Source: Omnitrophica WOR_2 bacterium RIFOXYA2_FULL_38_17 (GTDB taxonomy: Bacteria > Omnitrophota > Gorgyraeia > Zapsychrales > Zapsychraceae). Taken from it: DNA of 64,000 nucleotides. The DNA lies in NCBI GenBank assembly GCA_001805965.1, contig MHHG01000024.1, positions 1,384 to 65,383 on the forward strand, written 5' to 3'. The position numbers and the translations under genes were made by a program. This document shows positions 2,672-21,160 of this stretch, one piece after another. The notes beneath the pieces were generated by a model. That model was not told where the DNA came from. It saw only the letters and a program-made list of their open reading frames with translations, and did not search any database. Position 1 is the stretch's first letter. Every line of letters begins with the position of its first letter.

Positions 2672-4209
2672 AATCATTTCTCTTAGCACACAAAGATAAT
2701 AAGTATGTTGTGCCGGCTGCGCTTTTAGTTTTCAGCTTTTTAATAAGAATGAGCTTGATCAGCAAAGGGCCGTATAGCCTCGATTCTTTAGCTGTAGTAA
2801 ATGCAGCACTTCAAACAATCAAAACCCACCAGATTCAATATTTCCACGAGTTTCAATATCCTTTAGCTGTTATTTTTCTTGTAGGATTTATAAACTTTTT
2901 TAGATTGTTTGCAGTTGATGACCCGGTATTTTTATATAACCTTATAAGCGTTGTGTTCAGCTCAATAAGCGTTGTGTTGTTTTATGTTTTGATCAAGCCT
3001 ATCCTAAATAAACCTGCGGCTTTTTTTACGGCTATTTTGTTTTCCTTATGTCCGATCTATTTAGGTTTATCTGTTTATGGAACAAGCAATATCTTAAGCT
3101 TGTTCTTTCTTTTTTTGTGCTTTGTGAGCATGAGCCAATATTTTTCGCTGCAAGACAACAAATATTATTTCATCAGCTCTTTTAGTTTAGGGCTGATGGC
3201 TGCAGCAAGGCTACAGGAAATGTTCTTTTTGTTACCTGCTGTTTTTTGTTTTTTTGTTTTTCCACCTTTTAAAAAAATCAGCGAAGATGGCTCCGAACAA
3301 ACCATTCCGGGGGGGAGCCTGAATGGTTTTGTACCATATCTTTTTCTTGCTTTTGCAGTAGGAGCGCTTTTTTATTTTCCGGCGCTTTTAAGATATATCA
3401 AGTCCCCTGAAACCCCTTTTCTTCTGGAGGTCTTGGCTGACAATGTTCCAAGGAGAGGTTTTATTCCTTTCTTTATAGGATCGCTGGTCAGAAATGTAGA
3501 GTTTATCAAAATGTCTTTTTCTTCAACTGGGCTTTTGCTTTCAGTTGTTGGTTTAGCATTAATGCTTTTTTCACATAGAAAAGCCTTGTCCCTATGCTTA
3601 GCCTGGATAATGGCCCCTTTATTCCTTTTGACTTGTTTTAGGATTACGGGGCCAAGGCTGCTTGTTTTGACTGTTCCAGCTTTTTATATAGGGCTGGGTT
3701 ATGTTATTTTTATACTTTTTCAAAAGAACAAATTAATGCGCTTAGCTGCTTTTGTGATATTTATCGGGATTATGTTCTCGAACTATTTAGCAATATACCC
3801 AATTTTATTACATAGGCATAATGCCGCTCTTTTGCCTGATTATGCAAGGAAGATCGGCGAGATTTCCAAGCCAAACGATGTGATCATATGTCACGACGAA
3901 GCCTTGTTTATACAATATTATGCAAAGCGCAAGACAATTTCGCGACCTTCCGAGAAGGATCTTTTTAGCAGGGAAGCTATGATGAAATTTAAAGATGAGA
4001 TCAGTGAAGTATTGGAGCAGGGAAACTCTGTTTATTTAACTTGGCCCGGGATGTTTGCATCTGGGCATCCACAAGTGCTGGAGTATTTAATGAATAAATA
4101 TTTTAAAGTTGAAGAAATCGGGATTATGCCATATGAGGATTGGCACAGAGGGCCTATTAGGCAGCAGCTTTACAATTTACCTATCTATCAATTAAAAAAA
4201 AAGAAATGA
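2668..4209 (+). CDS. Polytopic membrane protein, possibly a GT-C fold (ArnT/PMT-like) glycosyltransferase
   Basis: 513 aa with about 12 hydrophobic segments. The start overlaps the upstream stop (ATGA). The family assignment is tentative. Confidence 0.45.
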   Translation: MKSFLLAHKDNKYVVPAALLVFSFLIRMSLISKGPYSLDSLAVVNAALQTIKTHQIQYFHEFQYPLAVIFLVGFINFFRLFAVDDPVFLYNLISVVFSSISVVLFYVLIKPILNKPAAFFTAILFSLCPIYLGLSVYGTSNILSLFFLFLCFVSMSQYFSLQDNKYYFISSFSLGLMAAARLQEMFFLLPAVFCFFVFPPFKKISEDGSEQTIPGGSLNGFVPYLFLAFAVGALFYFPALLRYIKSPETPFLLEVLADNVPRRGFIPFFIGSLVRNVEFIKMSFSSTGLLLSVVGLALMLFSHRKALSLCLAWIMAPLFLLTCFRITGPRLLVLTVPAFYIGLGYVIFILFQKNKLMRLAAFVIFIGIMFSNYLAIYPILLHRHNAALLPDYARKIGEISKPNDVIICHDEALFIQYYAKRKTISRPSEKDLFSREAMMKFKDEISEVLEQGNSVYLTWPGMFASGHPQVLEYLMNKYFKVEEIGIMPYEDWHRGPIRQQLYNLPIYQLKKKK

Positions 4210-4325
4210 TTGCTCGAGAGTCAGAAAGGTATTATTTAAATATCAGTTGTAAAATGCTATTTTTGCTGGTTTAATTGTATAATTGAACAATCGGATGAAT
4301 CCTTTTAACAGGAACAGGTCTTTAA

Positions 4326-6509
4326 ATGAATAGATTTAGAAAGCTTTTAAATATAGTTCTTGGTGCTGTATTTTTTCTTTTGTTGTCAGCGCATGCCTTT
4401 GCTTCGTCCGGGCAAGCAGAAGGCGGAATAGTCGCAATAACCAGCTTGCTCGTGATCCAGTTAAGTGTAATATTATTTGCTGCTTGGGTTGGCAATCTTG
4501 CGTTCGCGAGGATGAAGCTGCCTGCAGTGCTCGGAGAGATCGTTGCCGGAGTTGTTATTGGCCCGTACTTTTTAGGGTCTTTTGGTTTTCCCGGTTTTGA
4601 ACATGGTCTTTTCCCGCCATCAGGTGATTTTCCAGTTTCAATAGAATTGTATAGCCTTGCAACAATAGCATCGATAATCTTATTGTTCTTTGTCGGACTT
4701 GAGACGGATATACAGACCTTTTTAAGATTTTCTTTTGCTGGCTCCATAGTTGGTGTTTTTGGTGTTATTTTTAGTTTTATAGCAGGCGATATTTTAGGTG
4801 TCATGTTAGCCCAAAACCTGATGGGGCAAAATTACAGTTTTACTCACCCGTTCTGTCTTTATCTGGGTGTTTTATCCACAGCTACTTCAGTTGGCATTAC
4901 TGCCCGTATTCTCTCAGAAAAAAGAAAAATGAATTCTCCCGAAGGGGTCACTATTCTAGCCGCAGCAGTTATTGATGATGTGTTGGGCATTATTATCCTC
5001 GCAATAATCCTTGGTATGGTAAAAAGTGGCCACATAGGATGGAAGGAAGTTTCCCTTATCTCCCTTAAAGCTTTTGGTATCTGGCTGGGATTTACCTTGG
5101 TGGGACTGAAATATTCTTTAAAGTTATCTGCTGTTCTTAACAAAATCAAAGACCAAAACACGATTGCTATATTAAGCCTTGGCCTTGCCTTGTTATTGGC
5201 GGGCATATTTGAGCATTTTGGTTTAGCGATGATCATAGGCGCTTATGTTATGGGGCTATCGTTATCTAAGACAGACCTTGCCTTTATTGTCCAAGAGAAG
5301 CTGGAAATGTTGCAGAAATTTTTAGTGCCAATCTTTTTTTGTGTAATGGGCATGCTGGTTAATTTAAAAGAAATGGCGTCATTGCAGATCATTAGTTTTG
5401 GAATGCTTTATGTTGTTATGGCAACTCTTGGCAAGATCATAGGGTGCAGCATTCCGGCATTATTCCTGAATTTTAATTTAAGGGGAGCTTTGCGTATTGG
5501 TGTTGGAATGGTCCCGAGAGGTGAAGTAGCTTTGATCATTGCAGGTATTGGGCTTTCTTCAGGGATCATTGATGATAAAGTTTTTAGCATTGTCATGATA
5601 ATGACATTTGTTACAACATTGATCACTCCTTTGGTCCTCGACAAGATGCTCGATTCAAAAAAGCCTGTTCTAAGGAAAGAGCAGGAGATCAAGGATGAAC
5701 AAAAGACGATAAAATATGAAATGCCAAGCGTGGAAACGGCAGAACTGCTTCTTGCTAAAGTTGTCACTGCATTTGAAAATGAGGGGTTTTTTGTTCACAG
5801 AATGGGTCGTGAAGAAAGGCTGTTTAAGATCAGAAAAGAAAGCGTCTTTATTGTCATGCGATACACTACACAAAGAATGGAATTTGATTGCAGCGAGATG
5901 GATGCGCCATTTATTCACACCTTGTTCTATGAAGTTATTGCGGAACTGGAGCATGCTATGCAGACATTGCAGACGTTAACAGACAAAAGTTCTATTGGTA
6001 AAAAGATATTTGATACACAAAAAATAATTGCAAATATCAATAGTGACAGAAAAAAGAAATTTCAGATCATTTCTTCCAAGGCCCTTAATGTTGATTTACA
6101 GGGCAGGTCAAAAGAAGAGATTCTTGCTGAACTTGTTGAGCTGTTAATAGAGTCAAAGCAATTAGACGCATCACAAAAAGAAGAAGTAGTTAAAGATCTT
6201 CTTAAAAGAGAGTTAATGATGTCGACTGGAATGCAAAATGGCATTGCGCTGCCTCATGCTAAAACAATAGCTGTGGACCATGTTGTTGCTGCAGTAGGCA
6301 TAAGCAAAGAGGGAGTGGATTTTGCATCTCTGGACAAAATACCATCTAAGATCTTTGTTTTAACTTTGGCCTCGAAAGAACACCCTCATGCATATTTACA
6401 GTCCATGTCGGAGATCAGCAGGTTTTTATCGAAAGAAGAGAACAGGGCGAAAATGATAGCGTGTACTACAAGAATACAATTGTTTGACGTGTTAAGCTTT
6501 CATATGTAA
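4326..6509 (+). CDS. Kef/CPA2-type cation:proton antiporter fused to a C-terminal PTS EIIA-Ntr (PtsN-like) domain
   Basis: 727 aa. A signal-like N-terminus is followed by about 12 TM helices of a Na+/H+ (K+/H+) exchanger fold. The C-terminal ~150 aa contain RELMMSTGMQNGIALPHAK, which matches the PtsN active-site region REKMGSTGIGNGIAIPHGK. Confidence 0.8.
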   Translation: MNRFRKLLNIVLGAVFFLLLSAHAFASSGQAEGGIVAITSLLVIQLSVILFAAWVGNLAFARMKLPAVLGEIVAGVVIGPYFLGSFGFPGFEHGLFPPSGDFPVSIELYSLATIASIILLFFVGLETDIQTFLRFSFAGSIVGVFGVIFSFIAGDILGVMLAQNLMGQNYSFTHPFCLYLGVLSTATSVGITARILSEKRKMNSPEGVTILAAAVIDDVLGIIILAIILGMVKSGHIGWKEVSLISLKAFGIWLGFTLVGLKYSLKLSAVLNKIKDQNTIAILSLGLALLLAGIFEHFGLAMIIGAYVMGLSLSKTDLAFIVQEKLEMLQKFLVPIFFCVMGMLVNLKEMASLQIISFGMLYVVMATLGKIIGCSIPALFLNFNLRGALRIGVGMVPRGEVALIIAGIGLSSGIIDDKVFSIVMIMTFVTTLITPLVLDKMLDSKKPVLRKEQEIKDEQKTIKYEMPSVETAELLLAKVVTAFENEGFFVHRMGREERLFKIRKESVFIVMRYTTQRMEFDCSEMDAPFIHTLFYEVIAELEHAMQTLQTLTDKSSIGKKIFDTQKIIANINSDRKKKFQIISSKALNVDLQGRSKEEILAELVELLIESKQLDASQKEEVVKDLLKRELMMSTGMQNGIALPHAKTIAVDHVVAAVGISKEGVDFASLDKIPSKIFVLTLASKEHPHAYLQSMSEISRFLSKEENRAKMIACTTRIQLFDVLSFHM

Positions 6510-6527
6510 ATTATTTTTTTTGCCCTA

Positions 6528-6556
6528 TTGACAAAATGTTTTATCTGTTGTATAGT
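6528..6556 (+). promoter_or_regulatory. Sigma-70-like promoter for the amt1 leader (TTGACA-17-TATAGT)
   Basis: TTGACA at 6528-6533, a 17-nt spacer, TATAGT at 6551-6556. Confidence 0.55.
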
Positions 6557-6580
6557 TTGTCTAGTTAAAGGGCACAGTGG

Positions 6581-6616
6581 TTCTCTTGAATCGACGGAGA
6601 TTCAGGGGGATTTTTT
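6581..6616 (+). terminator. Leader hairpin + U-tract (first attenuator-like element of amt1 leader)
   Basis: CTCTTGAATC-gacgga-GATTCAGGGGG followed by TTTTTT. Confidence 0.4.
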
Positions 6617-6666
6617 ATTGTAGAAATGATCTTAATTTAAGGTTTATTTAAGACAGGTAAAATAGC

Positions 6667-6717
6667 GGACGCAGATGTCCTCTTTCGGGCATAGTTGCTT
6701 GAAAGGGGATTTTTTTA
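6667..6717 (+). promoter_or_regulatory. ANTAR-target-like hairpin GGAC-gcagat-GTCC overlapping the 5' arm of an intrinsic terminator (attenuator 2 of amt1 leader)
   Basis: GGAC 6667-6670, hexaloop, GTCC 6677-6680. The terminator is GTCCTCTTTC...GAAAGGGGA followed by TTTTTTT (6711-6717). Confidence 0.6.
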
Positions 6718-6718
6718 T

Positions 6719-6777
6719 GGACAAGGTTGTCCTCTTTAGAACAGTTGTCAAACAACGGTTTTGAAGAGGACTTTTTT
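6719..6777 (+). promoter_or_regulatory. ANTAR-target hairpin GGAC-aaggtt-GTCC overlapping a terminator (attenuator 3 of amt1 leader)
   Basis: The hexaloop AAGGTT has A1/G4. The terminator is GTCCTCTT...AAGAGGAC (perfect 8 bp) followed by TTTTTT (6772-6777). Confidence 0.65.
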
Positions 6778-6824
6778 ATAGATGGAAGGTTAATTGCAAA
6801 TCAATAAATATAAGAGGAGGGAAT

Positions 6825-8168
6825 ATGTTCGGGAAATTATTAACAAAATATGCATCAAGCTTTATTGTCCTGCTGCTTGCTGTGGCAATGGCAATGAGCT
6901 TGTCTTCTACAGCAAGTGCCGCAACTGCGGATGAAGCTATGTTCACAGTAAACAATACCTGGATGCTTGTGGCAACGATACTGGTCTTTATTATGCATCT
7001 TGGTTTTGCCACTCTGGAATCAGGCTTGACAAGATCAAAGAACACGGTAAATATTATTTTTAAGAATGTTTTGATCGTAGCTATAGGGCTTTTAACATAT
7101 GCTATAGCCGGATTCAATTTAATGTATCCGGGTGATGCCTGGATATTGGGGAAGTTCTTTGGCTTTGGGGGTTTTGGTATATCCTCACCGGAAGGTGCTG
7201 CGGGGTTAATAGATTATGCAAATGGCGCTTATACTTATTGGACTGATTTTATTTTTCAGGCAATGTTCGCCGCTACGGCAGCTACAATTGTCTCAGGTGC
7301 GGTCGCTGAAAGAATAAAACTGCACAGCTTTTTACTGTTTTCAGTTATCTTTGTGGGGATAGTTTATCCCTTTGTTGGAAGCTGGAAATGGGGCGGGGGC
7401 TGGTTAGATGCAATGAATTTTTATGATTTTGCCGGGTCTACTTTGGTTCATTCTGTAGGAGGATGGGGGGCGTTGGCAGGTGTTATTGTTTTAGGCCCAA
7501 GAATCGGCAAATATACAAATGGTGCAGTAAAGGCTATTCCTGGCCATAGTTTGCCGTTAGCTGCTATCGGTGTATTCTTATTATGGTTTGGCTGGTTTGG
7601 TTTTAACGGAGGTTCAGTTCTTTCTGCTGATCCAGGAGCTGTTTCTCTTGTATTTGTAACAACTTCTTTGGCAGCAGCGGCAGGGATCATTACATCAATG
7701 GTTACTTCTGAAATAATTCAGAAAAAACCTGACCTTTCTATGGTGTTAAATGGGGCTTTGGCAGGTCTTGTAGGCATTACAGCAGGCGCTGATACCGTGT
7801 CTGTTCTCAGTGCAATTATTATAGGAGGGATCGCAGGGTTCTTGGTAGTTGTTGCTGTAATTATCTTTGACTCAAAATTAAAACTGGATGATCCTGTCGG
7901 GGCATTGTCAGTTCATTTGGTTTGCGGGGTTTGGGGGACTTTGGCTGTAGGCATCTTTAGCATAAATCCAGAGCACTCCTTTATAACTCAGCTGATAGGG
8001 GTAATGGCATATGCTGCAATTTGTTTTCCTGCGGCCTTTTTGATATTTTCAATAATAAAAATAACTATGGGCATTAGAGTTACAGAAGAACAAGAAAACA
8101 GAGGGCTTGACATTTGTGAGCATGGTATGGAATCATATGGAGGGTTTCAGGTTTTTACTAATCAATAA
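6825..8168 (+). CDS. amtB: Ammonium transporter Amt (copy 1)
   Basis: 447 aa with a signal peptide and 11 TM. Conserved Amt/MEP blocks are present (…GAVAERIK…, …WFGWFGFNGGS…, …HLVCGVWGTLAVG…). RBS is GAGGAGGG. Confidence 0.9.
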   Translation: MFGKLLTKYASSFIVLLLAVAMAMSLSSTASAATADEAMFTVNNTWMLVATILVFIMHLGFATLESGLTRSKNTVNIIFKNVLIVAIGLLTYAIAGFNLMYPGDAWILGKFFGFGGFGISSPEGAAGLIDYANGAYTYWTDFIFQAMFAATAATIVSGAVAERIKLHSFLLFSVIFVGIVYPFVGSWKWGGGWLDAMNFYDFAGSTLVHSVGGWGALAGVIVLGPRIGKYTNGAVKAIPGHSLPLAAIGVFLLWFGWFGFNGGSVLSADPGAVSLVFVTTSLAAAAGIITSMVTSEIIQKKPDLSMVLNGALAGLVGITAGADTVSVLSAIIIGGIAGFLVVVAVIIFDSKLKLDDPVGALSVHLVCGVWGTLAVGIFSINPEHSFITQLIGVMAYAAICFPAAFLIFSIIKITMGIRVTEEQENRGLDICEHGMESYGGFQVFTNQ

Positions 8169-8201
8169 TCTTAACAATATTAGATATGGAGGAATAAAAA
8201 A

Positions 8202-8543
8202 ATGAAATTGATCATAGCAATGATACAGCCTCATAAGTTGCCAGATGTAAAAAAAGCTCTGTTTGAGGCAGAGATACATAAAATGACTGTGACTAATGTT
8301 CTTGGCTGCGGTCAGCAAAGGGGGTTCAGTGAGACTTATAGAGGCGTAGTACATGAAGTTAATCTTTTAAAAAAAGTGCGTCTAGAAATTGCTGTAAATG
8401 AGGACTTTGTCGACGACACAATAAAGGCAATTATTAAAGGTGCCAAGACAGGCAATATCGGAGATGGCAAGATCTTCGTCATGGATCTTCAGCGATGCAT
8501 AAGGATAAGGACTGAAGATGAAGGGCACGATGCGATAGGGTAG
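8202..8543 (+). CDS. glnK: PII nitrogen regulatory protein (GlnK-like, copy 1)
   Basis: 113 aa. It has a PII fold signature with a T-loop (...[12 protein letters not shown]...) and the C-terminal ...GDGKIFV...RIRT... block. It lies immediately downstream of amt. Confidence 0.85.
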
Positions 8544-8553
8544 AATTTTAAGA

Positions 8554-8581
8554 TTGACAAATTTGAGATTAATGCTATATT
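8554..8581 (+). promoter_or_regulatory. Sigma-70-like promoter for the amt2 leader (TTGACA-16-TATATT)
   Basis: TTGACA 8554-8559, TATATT 8576-8581. Confidence 0.5.
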
Positions 8582-8595
8582 TATTTCAAATTTAA

Positions 8596-8650
8596 GGGCA
8601 ATGAAGTCCTCCATAGAAACAGCAGTGATGTTTTTGTGGGGGACTTTTTT
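8596..8650 (+). promoter_or_regulatory. ANTAR-target-like hairpin GGGC-aatgaa-GTCC overlapping a terminator (attenuator 1 of amt2 leader)
   Basis: Loop A1/G4. The terminator is GTCCTCCA...TGGGGGAC followed by TTTTTT (8645-8650). Confidence 0.6.
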
Positions 8651-8678
8651 ATTGCGGAAAACAAAGATGTTTTCAAGA

Positions 8679-8699
8679 TTTTCTGATTAGATCAGAAAA
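8679..8699 (+). promoter_or_regulatory. Perfect 9-bp hairpin with a triloop (TTTTCTGAT-tag-ATCAGAAAA), no U-tract
   Basis: Seen directly. It sits between the two amt2 attenuators, 3 nt upstream of the next GGAC hairpin. Confidence 0.4.
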
Positions 8700-8702
8700 C
8701 AA

Positions 8703-8765
8703 GGACAAAGAAGTCCTCTCGCAGAAGAATGAAGTTTTGTTCTTTAGCCAGAGGTCTTTTTTTTA
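8703..8765 (+). promoter_or_regulatory. ANTAR-target hairpin GGAC-aaagaa-GTCC overlapping a terminator (attenuator 2 of amt2 leader)
   Basis: GGAC 8703-8706, GTCC 8713-8716. The terminator is GTCCTCT...AGAGGTC followed by a 9-T run (8757-8765). Confidence 0.6.
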
Positions 8766-8790
8766 ACAAAACACAGAAAGGAAATTAACA

Positions 8791-10125
8791 ATGAAGTTAT
8801 TCCGCATGTTAGGTTCTTTGATCACTGCAGCTGCTGTATCTTTGTTTTATGCTGTATCTTGTTTTGCAGGGGAAAATGGAGTTATTGATTCTGGAGCTAC
8901 TGCATGGATGTTGACATCAACGGCTTTGGTGCTTTTAATGGTCCCTGGGCTGGCTATGTTCTATGGTGGATTGGTTAGAACAAAGAATGTTCTTGGCACA
9001 ATGATGCACAGTTTTGTTTCTATAGCGATTATTGGTGTGTTGTGGACAATATTTGGGTATTCGTTATCTTTTGGACATAGTATTTTGGGCGGTTTTCTTG
9101 GTTGGAATCCTGATTATTTCTTCTTAAAAGGTATTGATGAAAGTATTGTTAATGGGGTTCCTGAATATGTATTAGCTATGTTTCAAGGTAAATTTGCGAT
9201 CATAACTCCTGCATTAATAGCAGGTGCACTTGCTGAGAGGGTTTATTTTAGAGGGTATTGTCTTTTTATAGCTCTTTGGTTCCTATTTGTTTATTGTCCT
9301 TTAGCTCACTGGGTCTGGGCTTCTGATGGGTGGCTCTTTAATGCTGGCGCTAGAGGTGTGATCGATCTGGCTGGAGGAACGGTAATTCATGTTTCAGCCG
9401 GAGTAAGTGCATTGGTCGTTTCCTTGTTTCTTGGAAAAAGAAAAGGTTATCCTGAAACAGTAGTAATGCCAAATAATCTGGTTATGACAATGATCGGAGC
9501 AGGATTACTATGGGTAGGCTGGTTTGGTTTTAATGCAGGCTCAACAGTGCATAGCGGGTTAGATACTGCCCGGGCGCTTACAATGACTCAGATTTCGGCA
9601 TCAAGTGGTGCTGTTACTTGGCTTGTTCTAGAAGCCATTATTTTTAAGAAGGCAACTTCTCTGGGCTTTGTGTCAGGAATTTTAGCAGGTTTGGTGGTAA
9701 TAACGCCTGCGGCAGGAGTTGTGCTTCCGTCGGGGGCTCTTATCTTGGGAATGTTATCATCAATCGCTTGTTATTTTGCACTAAAAATGAAAGCAAAATT
9801 TGGTTATGATGATAGTCTTGATTGTTTTGGTATCCATGGAGTTGGAAGTGGATTGGGAGTGCTAATGCTGTCTTTTTTTATAAGGGGAAGTTGGATGGCA
9901 GAGGCTTCAGCGGCTATCGGTACAAGATGGACGAACGTTGATCAATTTTTTATTCAGCTAAAAGGATTAAGTGCAACAATTGTATTAGCGGCTTTGGGTA
10001 CTTTGATAATTAGTTTTGTTGTAGAAAACACAATAGGTTTTAGATTAGGAAAAGCAAAAGAAATGGCAGGGATGGATCATTCTTTGCATGGTGAGCATGG
10101 ATATGGGATGTTGAATGTAAACTAA
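8791..10125 (+). CDS. amtB: Ammonium transporter Amt (copy 2, divergent)
   Basis: 444 aa with a signal peptide. Amt blocks are present (…GALAERV…, …WVGWFGFNAGS…, …HGVGSGLG…). Confidence 0.9.
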   Translation: MKLFRMLGSLITAAAVSLFYAVSCFAGENGVIDSGATAWMLTSTALVLLMVPGLAMFYGGLVRTKNVLGTMMHSFVSIAIIGVLWTIFGYSLSFGHSILGGFLGWNPDYFFLKGIDESIVNGVPEYVLAMFQGKFAIITPALIAGALAERVYFRGYCLFIALWFLFVYCPLAHWVWASDGWLFNAGARGVIDLAGGTVIHVSAGVSALVVSLFLGKRKGYPETVVMPNNLVMTMIGAGLLWVGWFGFNAGSTVHSGLDTARALTMTQISASSGAVTWLVLEAIIFKKATSLGFVSGILAGLVVITPAAGVVLPSGALILGMLSSIACYFALKMKAKFGYDDSLDCFGIHGVGSGLGVLMLSFFIRGSWMAEASAAIGTRWTNVDQFFIQLKGLSATIVLAALGTLIISFVVENTIGFRLGKAKEMAGMDHSLHGEHGYGMLNVN

Positions 10126-10153
10126 ATGTATTTTATCTATGGAAGGGAAAAAC

Positions 10154-10495
10154 ATGAAATTAATTACTGCTATTATTCAACCAGATAAATTAGATGAGGT
10201 CCGTGAGGCATTGATAAAAGCTGAAATTACAAGAATTACTGTGAGTCGTTGTTCCGGAAGAGGACAAGCTGAGGAAATTGATATATACCGTGGCCAGGAA
10301 ATAGTCCCGGAGCTAATATCAAAAGTAAGGCTTGATATTGCTGTTAATGAGGCTTTTGTTGATATTACAGTTGATACGATATTGAAGGCAGCAAAGCATG
10401 GAGATGGTGCAATTGGTGATGGTAAGATATTTATTACTTCTTTGGAAGAGTGTATACGTATTCGGACTGATGAGAGAGGGGGTAAGGCAATCTAG
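10154..10495 (+). CDS. glnK: PII nitrogen regulatory protein (copy 2, divergent)
   Basis: ORF 10139 trimmed to the ATG at 10154, which follows the RBS GGAAGGG. MKLITAIIQPDKLDEV... is a PII N-terminus, and the protein has the T-loop ...GRGQAEEIDIYRG... Confidence 0.8.
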   Translation: MKLITAIIQPDKLDEVREALIKAEITRITVSRCSGRGQAEEIDIYRGQEIVPELISKVRLDIAVNEAFVDITVDTILKAAKHGDGAIGDGKIFITSLEECIRIRTDERGGKAI

Positions 10496-10576
10496 TAACA
10501 GAATTATTATATTTAATAAAACTCAAGAATTGTGATATAACTCTAAGTAAGAAATTAAAAAAGGGAGGCAAACAAA

Positions 10577-12658
10577 ATGGAAGAATTTACTTCAATAGCG
10601 GATTATTATGGCGAAAATGTTTTTAATCTCAAGACTATGCGCAACTATCTCTCAGAGGAGGCATATAAATCTTTGAGCGCTACTATTAAGACTAGTGGCA
10701 CTTTGGACCCAAAGATTGCAGATGAAGTTGCAGATGCAATGAAAACATGGGCACTTTCAAAGGGTGCGACTCATTATACTCATTGGTTTCAGCCTTTGAC
10801 AGGTTCAACCGCTGAAAAGCATGATGCTTTTATCGACCCTGATAATGAAGGAGGCGTTATTATCAAATTCTCCGGTAAAGAACTTATTCAGGGTGAGCCG
10901 GATGCTTCAAGCTTTCCTTCAGGAGGATTAAGGACTACTTTTGAAGCTCGTGGATATACAGGATGGGACCCAACATCCCCAGCTTTTATTAAAGAAGGGC
11001 CTGAAGCAGCTACTCTTTGTATCCCAACATATTTTATTGGCTGGAAAGGAGAAGCCTTAGATAAGAAAACACCTCTTTTGCGTTCAATGAAAGCTCTTTC
11101 AAAACAAGTTTGTCGCTTGGCGGAGATATTTGGCATTAAATCAAAAGGTAAAACCGCATATGCAACTTTGGGTGGTGAGCAAGAATATTTTTTGATCGAT
11201 AGAGAGTTCTATTATTCAAGAATTGATCTTATGCAAACCGGCAGGACCTTATTCGGAAAAGAACCTGCAAAGCATCAGCAAATGGCAGATCACTATTTTG
11301 GTGCTATAAAGAGCCGTGTTATGGGCTTTATGGAAGACCTTGATAGAGAGATGTGGAGATTAGGTGCTCCTGTTAAAACAAGGCACAATGAAGTTTCTCC
11401 TGCACAATTTGAGATCGCCCCTGTTTTCGAACAGTTAAATTTAGCCATTGACCATAATATGTTGTTAATGGAGGTTATGCAAAAGGTCGCTGAAAAACAT
11501 GACCTGGCATGCCTTCTTCACGAAAAACCATTTTCTGGTGTTAATGGATCCGGGAAGCATAATAACTGGTCAATAGTTGGCCCTGACGAGAAGAATTGGC
11601 TTTCTCCAGGAGATAACCCGCACGATAATGCTAAGTTTTTAGTGGTTCTTTGTGCTATCATTAAGGCAGTTGATACATATGCTGATCTATTGAGAGCTTC
11701 AATTGCGTCAGCCGGCAATGATCATAGGCTTGGTTCACATGAAGCCCCTCCGGCTGTTATTTCAATTTTCTTAGGAGATCAGCTTACAGATATTATTGAG
11801 CAAATTGAAAAGGGCGGAGCAAAGTCTTCTAAGAAGGGTGGCGTTCTTGAGATAGGTGTTGATTCATTGCCTGATCTGCCTCGAGATGCGACTGATAGGA
11901 ACAGAACGTCTCCTTTTGCGTTTACTGGAGCGAAATTTGAATTTAGGGCAGTTGGCTCAAATGCTAATTTAGCAGGGCCAAATATTGTGCTTAATACTAT
12001 TGTCGCGGAAGCCTTAGACGAAATTTGTACAATATTAGAAGGTGTTAGTAAAAAGGACCTAAATGCTACAATACAAAAATTATTGCAGGATATTGTCAAG
12101 AAGCACAAAAGGATTCTTTTTAATGGTGATAATTATACAGAAGAATGGTTAAGAGAGGCAAAGAAAAGAGGCTTGCCAAATCTTAAGAATACTCCGGAAG
12201 CTTTAGAGGCTTTAAGGAGCCCGGCTAATGAGAAAGTTTTTGGAAAGCATGGAGTGTTATCCAAAACAGAGCTAGCTTCCAGGTATGAAGTTTATAAGGA
12301 AATGTATGAGTCTGTTATAGACTATGAAGCAAAGCTGTCTCTTGATATGGCAAAGACCATGATAGTGCCGGCTGTTTTTAGCTACCAAGAAGAGCTTGCA
12401 GACAGCATTAGATCAGTCGAGGGCATCAATAAGACAAAATCAACGGGGTCAAGAAAGATATTGAAAGAGATAACTGACGAGCTTGAAGGGGCGCTAGTTA
12501 AGATTGATACGCTTGCTGCTGCAATTAAAAGAGGCAATGCCTTAAAAACTAAGGTTGCGATGTTGGATCTTAGGTCTTCAATTGACTCTCTAGAAGGATT
12601 AGTTGCTGAAGATGTTTGGCCACTGCCTTCTTATGCAGAAATGTTGTTTATGCTTTAA
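10577..12658 (+). CDS. glnN: Glutamine synthetase type III
   Basis: 693 aa. The GSIII length and its N-terminal and catalytic blocks are recognisable. No terminator separates it from amt2-glnK2, so the three are probably co-transcribed. Confidence 0.85.
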   Translation: MEEFTSIADYYGENVFNLKTMRNYLSEEAYKSLSATIKTSGTLDPKIADEVADAMKTWALSKGATHYTHWFQPLTGSTAEKHDAFIDPDNEGGVIIKFSGKELIQGEPDASSFPSGGLRTTFEARGYTGWDPTSPAFIKEGPEAATLCIPTYFIGWKGEALDKKTPLLRSMKALSKQVCRLAEIFGIKSKGKTAYATLGGEQEYFLIDREFYYSRIDLMQTGRTLFGKEPAKHQQMADHYFGAIKSRVMGFMEDLDREMWRLGAPVKTRHNEVSPAQFEIAPVFEQLNLAIDHNMLLMEVMQKVAEKHDLACLLHEKPFSGVNGSGKHNNWSIVGPDEKNWLSPGDNPHDNAKFLVVLCAIIKAVDTYADLLRASIASAGNDHRLGSHEAPPAVISIFLGDQLTDIIEQIEKGGAKSSKKGGVLEIGVDSLPDLPRDATDRNRTSPFAFTGAKFEFRAVGSNANLAGPNIVLNTIVAEALDEICTILEGVSKKDLNATIQKLLQDIVKKHKRILFNGDNYTEEWLREAKKRGLPNLKNTPEALEALRSPANEKVFGKHGVLSKTELASRYEVYKEMYESVIDYEAKLSLDMAKTMIVPAVFSYQEELADSIRSVEGINKTKSTGSRKILKEITDELEGALVKIDTLAAAIKRGNALKTKVAMLDLRSSIDSLEGLVAEDVWPLPSYAEMLFML

Positions 12659-12689
12659 AGACTAGAATTATGTAATAAAAAATCATTGA

Positions 12690-12746
12690 AAGTATCGGGG
12701 CATATGTTATCCTCGACGAAAAAAGTATTCCCCGATACTTTCTTTT
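12690..12746 (+). terminator. Intrinsic terminator after glnN
   Basis: AAGTATCGGGG...CCCCGATACTT (11-bp stem) followed by TCTTTT. Confidence 0.55.
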
Positions 12747-12783
12747 GAAGTACAAAAGATTTGTTTTATACTAATCTCTGCAT

Positions 12784-12812
12784 TGACAAATAATAGAAAT
12801 TGTTATATACTC
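12784..12812 (+). promoter_or_regulatory. Sigma-70-like promoter (TTGACA-17-TATACT) for the second GAF-ANTAR gene
   Basis: TTGACA 12784-12789, TATACT 12807-12812. Confidence 0.55.
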
Positions 12813-12856
12813 CAAACATAGTAGTAGATGTAAAGAACGATGATGTTTATATGTCC

Positions 12857-12904
12857 TGGCAAAGTTGTCCGGAACTCATAGTAATGTGGGTCCGGGTTTT
12901 TTTT
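12857..12904 (+). promoter_or_regulatory. ANTAR-target-like hairpin (T)GGC-aaagtt-GTCC overlapping a terminator (TCCGGA...TCCGGG, then T8)
   Basis: Loop A1/G4, U-tract 12897-12904. It lies in the leader of the ANTAR paralog 2 gene. Confidence 0.5.
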
Positions 12905-12922
12905 GTGTAAGATATTTATTTT

Positions 12923-12972
12923 GGGCAAAGATGTCCTCATTCAATGAAGATATAATTGGGTGGGGCTTTTTT
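12923..12972 (+). promoter_or_regulatory. ANTAR-target-like hairpin GGGC-aaagat-GTCC followed by a weaker terminator-like hairpin/U-tract
   Basis: GGGC 12923-12926, GTCC 12933-12936, then ...GGGTGGGGC followed by TTTTTT (12966-12972). The downstream stem needs G-U pairs. Confidence 0.45.
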
Positions 12973-12987
12973 ATTGCAAAGGAAAAT

Positions 12988-14235
12988 ATGATGGCCGAAA
13001 AAAAGATCAGAAAGTTGCATATTAGTCAAGTGATGGAGAATAAACTCTTGCGTAAGATCGTTGAAATAACCAATTCTGAACTGGGCCTAGAAAAAGTTCT
13101 GAAAGAAACAGTTAATATTATCACAGAGGTTACAAAGGCAGACTCCGTGTTTATCTATTTACTTGATAATACAAAAAAACAGTTATCCTTGATGGCCTCG
13201 AAGACTCCTCATCAAAAAGAGATAGGACAGCTTAATTTAAAAGCAGGTGAAGGCATTGCAGGATGGGTCTTTAGCAACTCTTCCCTGGTGGCGATCGCAG
13301 AAAATGCTTATAAAGATGAACGTTTTAAAAGTTTTGATGTTTTGCCAGAAGATAAATATGAAGCCCTGTTATCTGTGCCAATTATCAATAAAGGTAAAGC
13401 TGTAGGCGTCGTGAATATCCAGAACAAAAGAAAACATGACTATAGTGAAAAGACGATAGATCTTATTTCTTTGATCGTAAAGCAAATTGAGGGTGTTTTA
13501 GAAAATGCTCGACTATATGAAGAAGCAAAGAAGAAAGCAGTACAATTTGATAACTTGATGAAGGTCAGTAATTCAATAACGTCAAAGAATTATCTTGAGG
13601 AGATCTTAAGTCTTATTGTGGTTGTTACGGCAGAGATTCTTAGCTCAAAGATATGTTCAATTATGCTTGTAGATAAAACGGGTAAAGAGCTAGAAATAAA
13701 GGCTACGCAAAGCCTTAGTGAACATTACAGGACAAAACCTAATTTAAAGATAGGTTCATGTATCAGCGGAGATGTTATAAGATCAAAAAAACCAATTGCG
13801 ATCTTTGATGTTCGGGAAGAAAAAAGATATTCATTTAGGGGTCTGGCAATAAAAGAAAAATTAACATCAATGTTATGTGTTCCAATGGTTGTGAAAGAGC
13901 AGGCAATTGGTTTGATAAATGTATATACGGAGAAGAAACACGAATTTACAAAAGAAGAGATTGATGTTTTGCAGATGGTGGCTAATCAGGCGGCAGTTGT
14001 TGTTGAGAATACAAAGTTAGTAGAAGAATCTATAAAGGCAAAAGAAGCATTAGAAACAAGAAAAATAATAGAAAAAGCAAAGGGCCTTTTGATGCAAATT
14101 AGATCTCTTAATGAAGATGATGCTTATAAAATGATATTGAAGAAGAGCATGGATTCTAGAAAATCTATGAAAGAAGTGTCAGAATCAATTTTATTAATGA
14201 GTGAATTTAAGAGTGAAGGGGTAAATTTGCAGTAG
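12988..14235 (+). CDS. GAF-GAF-ANTAR RNA-binding transcription antiterminator (paralog 2)
   Basis: ORF 12865 trimmed to MMAEKK at 12988. The upstream part overlaps the leader hairpins and has no match to paralog 1. The C-terminal ANTAR is ALETRKIIEKAKGLLMQIRSLNEDDAYKMILKKSMD. Confidence 0.8.
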   Translation: MMAEKKIRKLHISQVMENKLLRKIVEITNSELGLEKVLKETVNIITEVTKADSVFIYLLDNTKKQLSLMASKTPHQKEIGQLNLKAGEGIAGWVFSNSSLVAIAENAYKDERFKSFDVLPEDKYEALLSVPIINKGKAVGVVNIQNKRKHDYSEKTIDLISLIVKQIEGVLENARLYEEAKKKAVQFDNLMKVSNSITSKNYLEEILSLIVVVTAEILSSKICSIMLVDKTGKELEIKATQSLSEHYRTKPNLKIGSCISGDVIRSKKPIAIFDVREEKRYSFRGLAIKEKLTSMLCVPMVVKEQAIGLINVYTEKKHEFTKEEIDVLQMVANQAAVVVENTKLVEESIKAKEALETRKIIEKAKGLLMQIRSLNEDDAYKMILKKSMDSRKSMKEVSESILLMSEFKSEGVNLQ

Positions 14236-14297
14236 CATAAGTAGAAAGCTATCATTAATTAATACAAAGCTTTTATCTCGTTGCAGATTTAAAAGCT

Positions 14298-14347
14298 GGA
14301 CATAGCGGTCCGCCTTAGAACATGGATGTTCGAAAGCGGACTTTTTT
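14298..14347 (+). promoter_or_regulatory. ANTAR-target hairpin GGAC-atagcg-GTCC overlapping an intrinsic terminator (GTCCGC...GCGGAC, then T6)
   Basis: GGAC 14298-14301, GTCC 14308-14311, U-tract 14342-14347. It lies between the ANTAR2 gene and the porin-amt3 unit. Confidence 0.65.
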
Positions 14348-14429
14348 ATTTTAACAGAGCGCAGATTGTTCTTAATAGACTATGTTGTCAGTAAAATCAA
14401 ATATAAGACATAATATGAAAGGAAACGAA

Positions 14430-15221
14430 ATGAATAAGAATTTAATTAAAAGCTTGTTGGTTCTTTTGACAGTTTTAGTTACACCGATGTTTCAAACGAA
14501 TGCCGAATCTTCAACAGTATTAGGGGATTACTTGGCAAGTAAAGATGTGGAAATAGCAGTTTCTGCTAACATTGATTATTACGATAAATATGTCTGGAGA
14601 GGATTTCTCCTGGATGGCGATAATGTTATGCAATCAGGAGTTACGCTTTCTTCAAAAGGTTTTGAGGGAGGCTTCTGGGGAAGCTGGGACCTTCAGTCTG
14701 AAGATGGATTAGCCTCTGATGAAGTAGATGGATTCATTGGTTATGGTTTTGGTCTTGGTTTTTTAAATGATGCACTTGAGAAAATCACAGTGTCCTTAGG
14801 TCATACATGGTATGGATTTCCTGAAGCTGACCTTTATTCTAAAGAATTTTATTTAGGATTTGCAGTAGACACGTTCTTGTCTCCATATTTTACATGGTAT
14901 AAGGATTATGAAGATGAGGAGCAAGGTGGTGCTGATGGCAACTATTTTATGGCAGGGATCGGCCATAGTTTTAATATTAGTGAAGAGTATGGCGTTACCC
15001 TTGATTTAGGGTTGGAATATGGATTTAACGATAACGCTTTTATTGATGGAAAAGGTCATTATGCTTTGTCTAAAGTAGGCGTTACTATTCCGCTAACTGA
15101 AAAAATCTCTATGAGCCCTGTTATTGCTTACAGTGTTCCATTTGGCGATCTAGCAAATGGCGGGGGAAATGACCAAAAAGAACAGTTTTATGGGGGTGTT
15201 TCACTTGCGTTTAATTTTTAA
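14430..15221 (+). CDS. Predicted outer-membrane beta-barrel (porin-like) protein with signal peptide and C-terminal Phe
   Basis: ORF 14382 trimmed to the ATG at 14430, which follows the RBS AAGGAAA. It has alternating amphipathic Gly/aromatic-rich strands and ends ...LAFNF. It lies directly upstream of amt3. Confidence 0.6.
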   Translation: MNKNLIKSLLVLLTVLVTPMFQTNAESSTVLGDYLASKDVEIAVSANIDYYDKYVWRGFLLDGDNVMQSGVTLSSKGFEGGFWGSWDLQSEDGLASDEVDGFIGYGFGLGFLNDALEKITVSLGHTWYGFPEADLYSKEFYLGFAVDTFLSPYFTWYKDYEDEEQGGADGNYFMAGIGHSFNISEEYGVTLDLGLEYGFNDNAFIDGKGHYALSKVGVTIPLTEKISMSPVIAYSVPFGDLANGGGNDQKEQFYGGVSLAFNF

Positions 15222-15241: not shown

Positions 15242-16633
15242 ATGTTAAATAAAATAATGAAAAATATTGTTCGATCATTGCCCTTAATAGGGCTGATTAT
15301 AATGTTTTCGGTTATGCCGGCATTTGCAGAAGAGACAGAAACAAATGCAAAGGCAATTGAAGCATTAACTACTAATTTGAATATTGTTTGGACTTCAGTG
15401 GCTGCATTTTTGGTTTTTTTTATGCAAGCCGGTTTTGCGATGGTAGAAGTAGGTTTTACAAGAGCAAAAAATGCAGTGAATATTATAATGAAGAATTTAA
15501 TGGATTTTGCAGTTGGGACCCTTGTATTTTTCTTCATTGGTTTCGGACTTATGTTTGGAAAATCAAACGGTATATTTGGAACTACAAATTTCATGTTAGG
15601 CGGTGATGTTCTTGGTTCGGCTGAACATTGGAATTGGGCTTTCCTTATATTTCAGACGGTTTTTGCTGGAACTTCAGCAACTATAGTGTCGGGAGCAATG
15701 GCAGAAAGGACTAAATTTAAGGCATATTTATGTTACAGTGTCTTTATTTGTGCTTTTATCTATCCGATATTTGGCTCATGGGCGTGGGGAGGACTTCTTG
15801 ATGGTGGTGGCTGGTTAGAGAATTTAAAAACCCCTTTTGTTGATTTTGCTGGGTCAACCGTTGTTCACTCTATTGGTGGCTGGTTAGCATTAGCTGGAGC
15901 CATTGTTTTAGGCCCTAGATTGGGTAAATATTCTCCGGATGGAAAATCAAAGGCAATTCCTGGACACAATATAACTTTAGCTGCATTAGGTGTTTTTATA
16001 TTGTGGTTTGGATGGTTTGGTTTTAATCCTGGTTCAACAACTGTAGGCAATGGAGAGATCGGGCGGGTTGCTGTAACCACAAATCTGGCAGCGGCAGCTG
16101 GTGCGGTCAGCGCTATGATAATTGCATGGATATTATTTAAAAAACCTGATGCTTCAATGACTCTAAATGGTGCGCTAGCTGGATTAGTTGCGATAACAGC
16201 AGGTTGTTATACTGTTACGCCTATGGGTTCCATCTGGATAGGTGCTATAGGAGGAATCTTAGTTGTTTTTAGTGTCATTTTTATTGATCAGGTGCTAAAG
16301 GTTGATGATCCTGTAGGAGCTGTTTCTGTCCATGGAGTTTGTGGTGCTTGGGGTACGCTTGCTTGTGGCCTATTTAATGCCGAGAAGGTATTAGGAACAG
16401 GCGAAGTAAGCGGTGGTTTGCTCTATGGGGGAGGGATGAATCAATTAATAACACAGTTAATAGGGGTTGGAGCTGCTTTTATTTGGGCTTTCTCTATAGG
16501 GTTAATTTTATTTAACGTAATTAAGGTTACAATGGGCATTCGTGTTTCTCCAGAAGAAGAATTAAGAGGTTTGGATATTATGGAACATGGAATGGAAGCA
16601 TATGATGGATTCCAAATCTTTAGTAATTCATAA
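15242..16633 (+). CDS. amtB: Ammonium transporter Amt (copy 3, close paralog of copy 1)
   Basis: 463 aa with Amt blocks (…GAMAERTK…, …WFGWFGFNPGS…, …HGVCGAWGTLACG…). Confidence 0.9.
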   Translation: MLNKIMKNIVRSLPLIGLIIMFSVMPAFAEETETNAKAIEALTTNLNIVWTSVAAFLVFFMQAGFAMVEVGFTRAKNAVNIIMKNLMDFAVGTLVFFFIGFGLMFGKSNGIFGTTNFMLGGDVLGSAEHWNWAFLIFQTVFAGTSATIVSGAMAERTKFKAYLCYSVFICAFIYPIFGSWAWGGLLDGGGWLENLKTPFVDFAGSTVVHSIGGWLALAGAIVLGPRLGKYSPDGKSKAIPGHNITLAALGVFILWFGWFGFNPGSTTVGNGEIGRVAVTTNLAAAAGAVSAMIIAWILFKKPDASMTLNGALAGLVAITAGCYTVTPMGSIWIGAIGGILVVFSVIFIDQVLKVDDPVGAVSVHGVCGAWGTLACGLFNAEKVLGTGEVSGGLLYGGGMNQLITQLIGVGAAFIWAFSIGLILFNVIKVTMGIRVSPEEELRGLDIMEHGMEAYDGFQIFSNS

Positions 16634-16658: not shown

Positions 16659-17000
16659 ATGAAAATTATTACTGTAATGATACAGCCGCACAAATTGCCG
16701 GATGTTAAGAAAGAGCTCTTTGATGCAGATGTTCATAAAATGACCGTGACAAATGTGTTAGGTTGCGGGCAGCAAAGAGGTTATAGTGAGACATATAGAG
16801 GTGTGGTTCATGAAGTAAATCTCTTGAAAAAGGTTAGGATAGAAATAGCGGTAAATGAAAATTTTGTCGATAGGACAATAAAAGCAATTATCAAAGGCGC
16901 CAAGACAGGAAATATTGGTGACGGGAAGATATTTGTCACAGATCTGGATCGCTGTATTCGAATCAGGACAGGAGAGGAAGGCAATGAAGCTATAGGATAA
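16659..17000 (+). CDS. glnK: PII nitrogen regulatory protein (copy 3, ~85% identical to copy 1)
   Basis: 113 aa: [18 protein letters not shown]...[12 protein letters not shown]... Confidence 0.85.
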
Positions 17001-21131: not shown

Positions 21132-21160
21132 TTGACAATAAAAGTCCCTAAGAGTATATT
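21132..21160 (+). promoter_or_regulatory. Sigma-70-like promoter (TTGACA-17-TATATT)
   Basis: TTGACA 21132-21137, TATATT 21155-21160. It is followed at ~21218-21250 by a GTCCTC-containing hairpin and a U-tract. Confidence 0.5.

Follow-up and report, generated by a model that had tools for sequence, protein, structure and literature searches.

Hexaloop hairpins fused to intrinsic terminators in nitrogen-gene leaders of an Omnitrophota bacterium: probable attenuators read by neighbouring GAF-GAF-ANTAR proteins

A 64,000-nt stretch of contig MHHG01000024.1 from Omnitrophica WOR_2 bacterium RIFOXYA2_FULL_38_17 (assembly GCA_001805965.1), hereafter the window, carries genes for ammonium transporters (amt), P-II proteins (glnK) and glutamine synthetase (GS) behind leaders in which a small hairpin runs into an intrinsic terminator. 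What decides whether RNA polymerase passes these terminators? Here, we report that the leader units are probably protein-dependent transcription attenuators of the ANTAR type, most likely read by the two GAF-GAF-ANTAR proteins encoded among them; the assignment rests on sequence comparison and RNA folding. All coordinates refer to the window, and all of the genes and elements described lie on its + strand.

An ANTAR target is a hairpin of at least 3 bp with a hexaloop that has A at position 1 (A1) and G at position 4 (G4), usually above a C-G closing pair (Ramesh 2012; minimal motif revised in Walshe 2022). We find nine terminator-linked hairpins of this kind in the window, termed E0 to E7 and the 21172 hairpin after its first position. 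Their consensus is (A)GGRC-RNNGNN-GUCC(U), with 3-5 bp, just 5' of each terminator; the closing pair is C-G in 9/9 and the loop is A1/G4 in 8/9, E1 being G1/G4. A preliminary description of this DNA had listed seven of them, E1 to E7, all of which are present where it placed them; the list was nevertheless incomplete, missing E0 at 6570, the leader at 21132-21270 and a partner hairpin at 8657-8674. It was right that the E1 loop, GCAGAU, lacks A1, but not that this is a single exception, as the loop begins with G in 10/54 family members of related loci and also in the published seed (Listeria monocytogenes eutA P2, GAUGAA). The strict motif GRCANNGNNGTC (GRC-ANNGNN-GTC) has seven matches against 1.28 expected on both strands of the 64 kb, a number reached by 0/100 shuffles, and every match lies on the + strand in an intergenic leader. 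The looser form GGRC-N6-GTYC gives 15 matches against 2.1 expected, both strands counted. A separate hairpin hit at 47154 was set aside as chance or unclear, being inside a coding sequence and having no terminator.

The leaders contain one to three intrinsic terminators in series. The first follows a sigma-70-type promoter at 6528-6556 (TTGACA-17-TATAGT) and precedes amt1 (6825-8168) and glnK1 (8202-8543). In E0 (6570-6616) the hairpin GGGC ACAGUG GUUC at 6570-6583 (11.4 bits in model R1) leads into a terminator at 6581-6610 with a U-tract, the apex of which forms a second hexaloop, GAAUC GACGGA GAUUC (6588-6603), with G at loop position 1 (11.0 bits in model R3). E1 (6667-6716) consists of GGAC GCAGAU GUCC at 6667-6680 and a terminator at 6678-6709 with a U-tract, within which a second hexaloop, CGGGC AUAGUU GCUUG (6686-6701), is nested after a 5-nt linker. 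E2 (6719-6777) has the hairpin GGAC AAGGUU GUCC at 6719-6732 and a terminator at 6729-6771 with a U-tract; no second hexaloop belongs to it, and 17 nt upstream lies the E1 apex hairpin. The only difference between this leader and that of the related locus L005 is a T>C change at 6582, which turns the 3' arm of E0 from GUUC into the consensus GUCC; the change is compatible with both folds and strengthens both the small hairpin and the terminator. Strain variation among L001-L006 amounts to three single-nucleotide polymorphisms, too few to test structure.

The second leader begins at a promoter with an extended TG element (TTGACA-16-TATATT, 8554-8581) and precedes amt2 (8791-10125), glnK2 (10139-10495) and glnN (10577-12658), which encodes a type III GS; the sequence of the gap between glnK2 and glnN contains no terminator. 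E3 (8595-8650) pairs AGGGC AAUGAA GUCCU at 8595-8610 with a terminator at 8606-8644 and a U-tract, scoring 26.5 bits in model R2 and 15.2 in R3. E4 (8702-8764) has AGGAC AAAGAA GUCCU at 8702-8717 and a terminator at 8713-8756 followed by U8 (R2 26.5, R3 19.5 bits), and 27 nt upstream of it lies a P1-like hairpin, GAAAAC AAAGAU GUUUUC (8657-8674; R3 17.1, R1 11.5 bits). We also observed that the apex of the E3 terminator (8618-8634, ACAGC AGUGAU GUUUU) nearly matches the P1 hairpin of Enterococcus faecalis eutA in the published seed, ACACC AGUGAU GUUGU; it escaped the apex test described below because its minimum-free-energy loop reads as a heptaloop. A separate hairpin at 8785-8800, UUAAC AAUGAA GUUAU, spans the amt2 start codon at 8791 and scores 14.9 bits in R3, though folding of the surrounding sequence gave no significant structure; the hairpin may be an ANTAR site with an effect on translation, or a chance occurrence in AT-rich sequence.

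The third leader, from a promoter at 12783-12811 (TTGACA-17-TATACT), precedes the gene of the second GAF-GAF-ANTAR protein, ANTAR2 (12988-14235). E5 (12836-12904) comprises (CCU)GGC AAAGUU GUC(CGG) at 12855-12872 (R1 13.2 bits), a terminator at 12869-12895 with U8 and a possible P1, GAAC GAUGAU GUUU, at 12836-12849 (R3 10.7 bits). It is followed by E6 (12923-12972; R2 22.4 bits), with GGGC AAAGAU GUCC at 12923-12936 and a terminator at 12935-12965 ending in a U-tract. Between ANTAR2 and the next operon lies E7 (14297-14347), with UGGAC AUAGCG GUCCG at 14297-14312, a terminator at 14308-14341 with a U-tract and, after a 5-nt linker, the nested hexaloop GAAC AUGGAU GUUC at 14318-14331. The last leader, at 21132-21270, lies upstream of a glutamate-synthase-like (GltS-like) gene (21370-23010) and carries its own promoter at 21132-21160. 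Its first hairpin, AGGC AAUGGC GUCU at 21172-21185 (R2 16.4, R3 14.2 bits), is followed after 5 nt by AGAUCUC GUUGUA GAGAUUC (21191-21210) and by a degenerate GGG AAGUCUG UCC (21216-21228) that overlaps the terminator at 21224-21257, which ends in U8. Past this terminator, 68 nt before the start codon, a hairpin with the same loop as that at 21172 (UUAUC AAUGGC GAUAA, 21287-21302) has no convincing terminator behind it and no significant fold.

The four promoters named above (at 6528, 8554, 12783 and 21132) each match 11/12 consensus positions and are the four best promoter-like sites in 17 kb. The preliminary description had placed the elements always downstream of sigma-70 promoters, which holds for the leaders starting at 6528, 8554 and 12783 but not for the element at 14298, which has no promoter of its own and lies behind the ANTAR2 gene. 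A weaker site at 14385-14414 (TTGTCA-18-CATAAT, 10/12 positions) occurs past the E7 terminator, just ahead of the likely true start of the next gene at 14430, and could supply an ANTAR-independent basal transcript for amt3-glnK3. The preliminary description saw no -24/-12 sigma-54 box, and a search of the window for TGGCAC-N5-TTGC with up to two mismatches bears this out, with 43 matches against 52 expected; the only match in a leader, TGGAAGGTTAATTGC at 6783-6797, past the final terminator of the amt1 leader and ahead of the amt1 start, has two mismatches and is at chance level. The preliminary description also held that control here is by antiterminators instead of NtrBC or GlnR; no regulator of these types is encoded in the window, but 64 kb is too little to judge this.

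How could a small hairpin influence the terminator behind it? As the preliminary description anticipated, folding gave a terminator hairpin followed by a U-tract as the minimum-free-energy structure for every element, with energies of -11.6 to -23.7 kcal/mol and z-scores of -2.2 to -6.4. Its statement that the 3' arm of the small hairpin is also the start of the terminator applies in full to five elements, in which 3-4 nt are shared, but less well to the minimal hairpins at 12858 (E5) and 12923 (E6), where the overlap is only 1-2 nt; in E5 a longer stem, CC(U)GGC/GUC(C)GG, brings it to 4 nt. When the small hairpin was enforced, the remaining terminator stem ended 1-4 nt before the U-tract (3-4 nt in 5/8). 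The small hairpin and the intrinsic terminator are mutually exclusive.

Two independent covariance models identify the same hairpins. Model R2, for which 41 hairpins were taken exclusively from other genomes, with the window left out, has as its top seven window matches the sites at 8594, 8701, 12921, 21170, 6717, 14296 and 6665, at 15.1-26.5 bits against 10.9 for the best background match. Model R3 contains only published seed hairpins, those of the E. faecalis and L. monocytogenes eut genes and of Klebsiella oxytoca nasF; its top three window matches are at 8702, 8658 and 8595, and those at 21171 and 12922 are within the top eight. Two loops, AAUGGC and AAAGAA, are common to the window and to validated ANTAR targets; the related loci also have AAAGAC and AAAGGC. 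A scan with Rfam 15, including the glutamine riboswitch, brought only two tRNAs in the window to the gathering score, and a permissive Rfam search (E up to 10) of the region 6400-14500 returned nothing credible.

Does each unit contain one recognition hairpin or two? The preliminary description saw only single hairpins. This is correct for E2, E3 and E6, which have no clear partner and stand in tandem arrays, and wrong for E0, E1 and E7, with a second hexaloop at the terminator apex 4-6 nt downstream of the first hairpin, for E4 and E5, with one upstream, and for the 21172 leader. The linker is 4-8 nt in E0, E1, E5, E7 and the 21172 leader, some of the partner loops beginning with G; in E5 the partner is of the G1 type and lies 5-8 nt upstream. 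In Omnitrophota as a whole, 11/29 unit terminators carry a nested apex RNNGNN hexaloop 4-9 nt past the first hairpin, compared with 9/364 among the remaining terminators of these loci (Fisher p = 5e-9); restricting the loop to ANNGNN gives 8/29 and 2/364. Units from Nitrospirota instead follow the classical order of P1, linker and P2 fused to the terminator, with an upstream P1 (at least 4 bp, ANNGNN loop, 22-30 nt upstream) in 16/25, against a shuffle mean of 1.6 and maximum of 6. An upstream P1 was rejected as a general feature of Omnitrophota: it appears in 10/29 units against 3.1 expected, but most cases are AT-rich artefacts or the previous tandem unit. In the Omnitrophota leaders the promoter leaves no room upstream, and the partner is found at the terminator apex instead. 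It is the downstream hairpin that overlaps the terminator in E4, E5 and Nitrospirota, while in E0, E1 and E7 the arrangement is reversed, the upstream hairpin overlapping and the second lying inside the terminator.

The most serious rival explanation arises at this point, namely that only two-hexaloop units respond to ANTAR proteins and that E2, E3 and E6, as partial terminators outside this control or as duplicates in decay, do no more than reduce basal expression. For EutV, antitermination in vitro requires two hairpins at the correct spacing and is abolished by a 20-nt extension of the linker (Walshe 2022). The second hexaloop is significantly enriched in the family, and the criteria used there detect none in E2, E3 and E6. 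Nevertheless, the hairpins of E3 and E6 are among the three best in the window (26.5 and 22.4 bits), which argues for selection on the hairpin itself, and the register between hairpin and terminator is the same in single as in dual units. Geobacter, moreover, has a single conserved motif overlapping its terminator, and the ANTAR dimer of EutV contacts one hexaloop at a time, the minimal target having been redefined as a single hexaloop (Walshe 2022). We therefore regard this rival as unlikely. Given this contact with one hexaloop at a time, the recognition mode need not differ from that of known systems, as the preliminary description had supposed it might.

What reads the hairpins? The best candidates are the two proteins of the cluster, ANTAR1 (411 aa, 1436-2671) and ANTAR2 (415 aa from the ATG at 12988), which are 67% identical and in which Pfam recognizes two GAF domains and an ANTAR domain (PF03861; 70.2 and 65.0 bits, respectively, against a cut-off of 27.3, over model positions 3-54 of 54). 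PDB matches of the ANTAR domain are Rv1626, EutV and NasR. Of 11 RNA-contacting residues of EutV, eight are kept, including all of the G4 contacts and Met172: assuming a +2 offset of the PDB chain numbering, ANTAR2 R358, K359, K363, K365, E376, Y380, M388 and R391 correspond to EutV R142, K143, K147, K149, E160, Y164, M172 and R175, the differences being D389 for N173, L384 for R168 and S393 for R177. ANTAR1 is the best tblastn match in all related loci and is closest to the orthologues elsewhere; its gene lies behind one for a DRTGG/AAA_26 protein, and no model match indicates an attenuator upstream of it. ANTAR2, which lies behind its own two attenuators, is probably autoregulated. No exact database record begins at ATG 12988, because gene callers took a longer open reading frame (ORF) that starts inside the leader; homologues of 405-461 aa, mostly 407-431, are compatible with this start.

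The sensor half of the proteins may read a nitrogen signal. The first GAF domain (GAF1) matches PtsP GAF structures (PDB 3ci6, E = 2.8e-22; PDB 3trc, E = 6.7e-16) and is 33% identical over 162 aa to the PtsP encoded in the window itself (E = 2e-19). The GAF domain of PtsP (EI-Ntr) binds glutamine in several proteobacteria, and ligand binding by this domain, whether of glutamine or 2-oxoglutarate, is known in E. coli, S. meliloti and C. crescentus (PMC4848567). A nitrogen-metabolite signal is plausible because GAF1 resembles this glutamine-binding domain, and the earlier guess that the GAF modules may sense 2-oxoglutarate or glutamine appears reasonable. Among one-component ANTAR proteins, a 2020 paper names only NasR and PAL, and a 2025 review lists no characterized GAF-ANTAR protein.

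If the proteins read the hairpins, the two should travel together, as the preliminary description had suggested for related genomes. Orthologues of the ANTAR proteins are 57-66% identical in Omnitrophota, 44-51% in Nitrospirota, Elusimicrobiota and a few metagenome-assembled genomes (MAGs) labelled otherwise, and 36-41% in Acidobacteriota; the named homologues carry Omnitrophica or Omnitrophota labels. We scanned the window and 80 orthologue loci for a hexaloop hairpin with a GRC/GYC core overlapping a terminator and obtained 54 units in the window and 37/80 related loci, all on the strand of the ANTAR gene, so that the expected linkage holds across three phyla (Omnitrophota, Nitrospirota and Elusimicrobiota). 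The units precede amt-glnK, glnN, a trio of unknown protein, amt and glnK, ptsP, nifH with two P-II-like genes, and the ANTAR gene itself; in Nitrospirota they precede nadE and an operon of BBP2 porin, amt, amt and glnK. In the window, the two ANTAR genes lie within 12 kb of E0-E7 and the 21172 element is 7 kb past ANTAR2. One further observation concerns L015, another Omnitrophota MAG, in which two tandem units at 3307-4371 stand directly before nifH and the two P-II-like genes, so that the hairpin family would cover nitrogenase in some lineages.

This linkage also bears on the possibility that the units are read by some other factor, such as another RNA-binding protein, a small-molecule riboswitch or a P-II partner, and that the association with ANTAR genes reflects shared nitrogen function only. 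The role of the ANTAR proteins is deduced from sequence, their genes sit in a general nitrogen island with many co-occurring genes, and a motif of 14-18 nt is low in information. Yet the consensus of loop and closing pair is that of ANTAR targets, with loops identical to those of eut and nasF, the proteins keep the G4-binding residues, and the linkage persists where the neighbours differ (nadE in Nitrospirota, amt and glnN in Omnitrophota). There is likewise no Rfam riboswitch match, and a ligand pocket would not fit into a hairpin of 14 nt. We consider such a factor improbable, somewhat more so than a restriction to dual units.

A DNA-level role for GGAC-N6-GTCC as the operator of a dimeric repressor, with incidental terminator overlap, is very improbable: four copies in the window are indeed perfect DNA palindromes that match both strands, and E0 and E3 sit about 10-15 bp after the -10 box in a typical repressor position, but E1, E2, E4, E6 and E7 lie far from promoters in constant register with a terminator, every copy sits on the coding strand, the conserved loop (A or G at position 1, G at position 4) reads differently on the two strands, and at the second stem pair, which among 48 distinct sequences is A-U in 26, G-U in 19 and G-C in 3, the 19/48 members with G opposite T, always in the same orientation, have an RNA wobble that would be a mismatch in a DNA half-site. 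The alternation of A-U, G-U and G-C at this pair fits an RNA helix, not a DNA half-site.

Competition between hexaloop and terminator, read by GAF-ANTAR proteins as a nitrogen regulon, thus agrees with all of the in silico tests (domains, contact residues, linkage and loops). Several points nevertheless weigh against it. The DNA comes from an uncultured Omnitrophota MAG, and we infer binding, read-through and signal alike. The small hairpins are weak alone (-0.1 to -4.0 kcal/mol) and are absent from every minimum-free-energy structure; the 1-2-nt overlap of the minimal E5 and E6 hairpins is short; and E0 and E5, the weakest members, score near background in the independent models R2 and R3. 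E2, E3 and E6 have no clear second hairpin, while EutV required correctly spaced dual hairpins in vitro. Covariation in the stem is weak (0.195 against 0.162 for shuffles, with 30/500 shuffles as high), because a stem that overlaps the terminator is conserved in sequence, and only the alternation at the second pair is informative; moreover, the pattern used to collect the family fixed the three inner pairs, which by itself accounts for part of the stem's uniformity, and the unbiased evidence consists of the enrichment tests and the leave-window-out model. Finally, the loci of distant acidobacterial homologues show no hexaloop-terminator units. In these high-GC loci a loose 3-bp pattern is uninformative, with 95 matches on one strand and 96 on the other. 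Four of the acidobacterial loci (L076, L079, L080 and L084) share a sequence resembling ATAGAAWTTTTGAATTGGAC about 100-190 nt upstream of the ANTAR homologue, and the distant acidobacterial homologues may be wired differently.

With ANTAR-type attenuation as the preferred reading, the following mechanism can be proposed. The four strong sigma-70-type promoters would drive transcription of short leaders, in which the terminators would form by default, so that little RNA would reach amt1-glnK1, amt2-glnK2-glnN, ANTAR2, the amt3 operon and the GltS-like gene. When nitrogen is scarce, a GAF-GAF-ANTAR dimer would bind the nascent hexaloop hairpin, the conserved Tyr receiving the flipped-out G4 as it does in EutV. 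By keeping GUCC(UC) in the small hairpin, the protein would leave the base of the terminator open and allow RNA polymerase to read through. ANTAR1, which has no attenuator, would serve as a standing sensor, and ANTAR2, placed behind two attenuators and before a third, would set up a positive feedback loop and, with amt3-glnK3, a second wave of expression. The second hexaloop is probably the recruitment or hand-over hairpin of a successive-binding model, whether at the apex (E0, E1 and E7), upstream (E4 and E5) or in the neighbouring tandem unit. As for the signal, the PtsP-like GAF1 probably senses a metabolite that reflects nitrogen status, such as glutamine or 2-oxoglutarate; no other step of the scheme is as weak, and the direction of control is likewise conjectural.

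The remaining genes of the region place these leaders in a wider nitrogen island. Pfam supports the gene order that had been proposed from the translations, with amt, glnK and glnN genes and two GAF-GAF-ANTAR genes. Upstream, the DRTGG/AAA_26 gene (235-1413) and ANTAR1 are followed by a PMT_2 glycosyltransferase gene and by a Na+/H+ exchanger fused to a PTS EIIA_2 domain (4326-6509). GlnK1 has identical copies, in an identical gene order, on contigs of GCA_001806045.1, GCA_001804475.1 and others. Behind E7 lies a gene for a secreted beta-rich protein of unknown family, starting at 14382 or 14430 and ending at 15221, then amt3 (15242-16633) and glnK3 (16659-17000). The secreted protein had been labelled a porin; the ORF at 14382-15221 has no Pfam match, with a signal peptide and a C-terminal F in its translation, and we rejected a relationship between this 279-aa protein and the BBP2 porin of Nitrospira, as there is no similarity between them. 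A trio of the secreted protein-amt3-glnK3 type also stands behind an element in L014 and L023, and Nitrospira loci have the set of BBP2 porin, amt and glnK. Next come ptsP with its GAF domain (17102-19360), nadE, the GltS-like gene, gltB and gltD.

Some further observations on this island may be added. The window between 19454 and 59841 encodes glutamine-consuming enzymes in series, namely nadE, the GltS-like gene, gltB, gltD, carA, carB, purF, pyrG and later glmS, and such clustering of glutamine amidotransferases beside amt, glnK and GS is unusually complete; hexaloop-terminator units were not found upstream of these genes, except for that at 21172. Ahead of gltB, a long AT-rich spacer of 520 nt contains a 74-codon ORF (23169-23393), with no attenuator-like structure seen. 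The island also combines an EIIA_2 (EIIA-Ntr-type) domain on the Na+/H+ exchanger with a GAF-containing EI (PtsP), and the fusion near PtsP suggests a PTS-Ntr phosphorelay directly onto a cation antiporter.

How far might this regulation extend? It is possible, though on balance doubtful, that GAF-GAF-ANTAR proteins with a PtsP-type GAF domain are the master regulators of nitrogen status in Omnitrophota and Nitrospirota, including nitrite oxidizers. They would sense glutamine or 2-oxoglutarate directly and would control ammonium uptake, P-II, GS, NAD synthetase and in some cases nitrogenase purely at transcription elongation, replacing NtrBC, GlnR or NtcA. In such a scheme, single hexaloops would be fused to terminators, with tandem units or a hexaloop at the tip replacing the upstream recruitment hairpin and the protein handed from unit to unit. 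On the narrower reading, the window already offers a concrete, testable regulon for the GAF-ANTAR subclass, no characterized member of which was found in the literature, and a plausible answer to how nitrogen assimilation is controlled in two poorly studied phyla, Omnitrophota and Nitrospirota, the latter of interest for nitrification. The variety of units, whether single, nested or with a partner upstream, also bears on the question raised by Walshe 2022 of whether one hexaloop suffices in co-transcriptional antitermination.

The mechanism itself is not new, having been shown in Geobacter in 2010, and a 2012 study had predicted such RNAs ahead of amt, P-II and GS genes; these precedents lessen the novelty implied by the preliminary description. 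In that study (Ramesh 2012), predicted ANTAR RNAs overlap terminators in front of genes for ammonium transport, P-II, glutamine and glutamate synthases and nitrogenase, often with several per leader, and 13 RNA matches in six transcription units are given for Desulfotomaculum acetoxidans (Table S2). Its searches required two hairpins and covered sequenced isolates; Omnitrophota, Nitrospirota, the GAF-GAF-ANTAR family and the nested-apex geometry are not described in the text consulted. Relative to the texts consulted, what the window adds is a sensor family with two GAF domains that extends through Omnitrophota and Nitrospirota, promoters of sigma-70 type, a second paralogue under its own control, and the nested or tandem layout, with its partner hairpin at the terminator apex.

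Among the closest known systems is GnfK/GnfR of Geobacter sulfurreducens. There, GnfR targets the terminators that precede glnK, amtB and nif genes, with a conserved CAGGCAANGGCGCC that begins before the terminator and runs into it (Ueki and Lovley 2010, PMC2995071), and ANTAR-dependent read-through of these leader terminators is what the window shares with it. The motif CAGGCAANGGCGCC can be read as GGC-AANGGC-GCC, a hexaloop of the same kind as AGGC AAUGGC GUCU at 21172. There are clear differences, however. GnfR is a phosphorylated REC-ANTAR response regulator under a sigma-54/GnfLM cascade, whereas the window has one-component GAF-GAF-ANTAR proteins and sigma-70-type promoters; and, unlike GnfR, it has tandem terminators and targets that include type III GS and the gene of the regulator.

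The units are also close to the dual-hexaloop targets of EutV/EutW in E. faecalis (Ramesh 2012; Walshe 2022), which are C-G-closed hairpins of at least 3 bp with A1/G4 hexaloops, three of them (AAUGGC, AAAGAA and AAAGAC) identical, and in which the hairpin is likewise exclusive with the terminator and the residues contacting G4 are conserved in the protein. In the eut leaders it is P2 that runs into the terminator, with P1 placed 5-12 nt before it, whereas the overlapping hairpin of the window is often the 5' or the only one and its partner can be apical; the sensor of EutV is a REC domain, that of the window proteins a pair of GAF domains. With NasR and nasF of K. oxytoca, the window shares a one-component sensor-ANTAR protein placed over nitrogen assimilation, and the nasF P2 hairpin, GGAU AAAGGC GUCC, is nearly equal to the window motif and to GGAC AAAGGC GUCC of Nitrospira. 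NasR, however, uses a NIT domain to respond to nitrate and nitrite and acts on one operon through one terminator, whereas the proteins described here carry two GAF domains and would act on several operons through at least nine attenuators.

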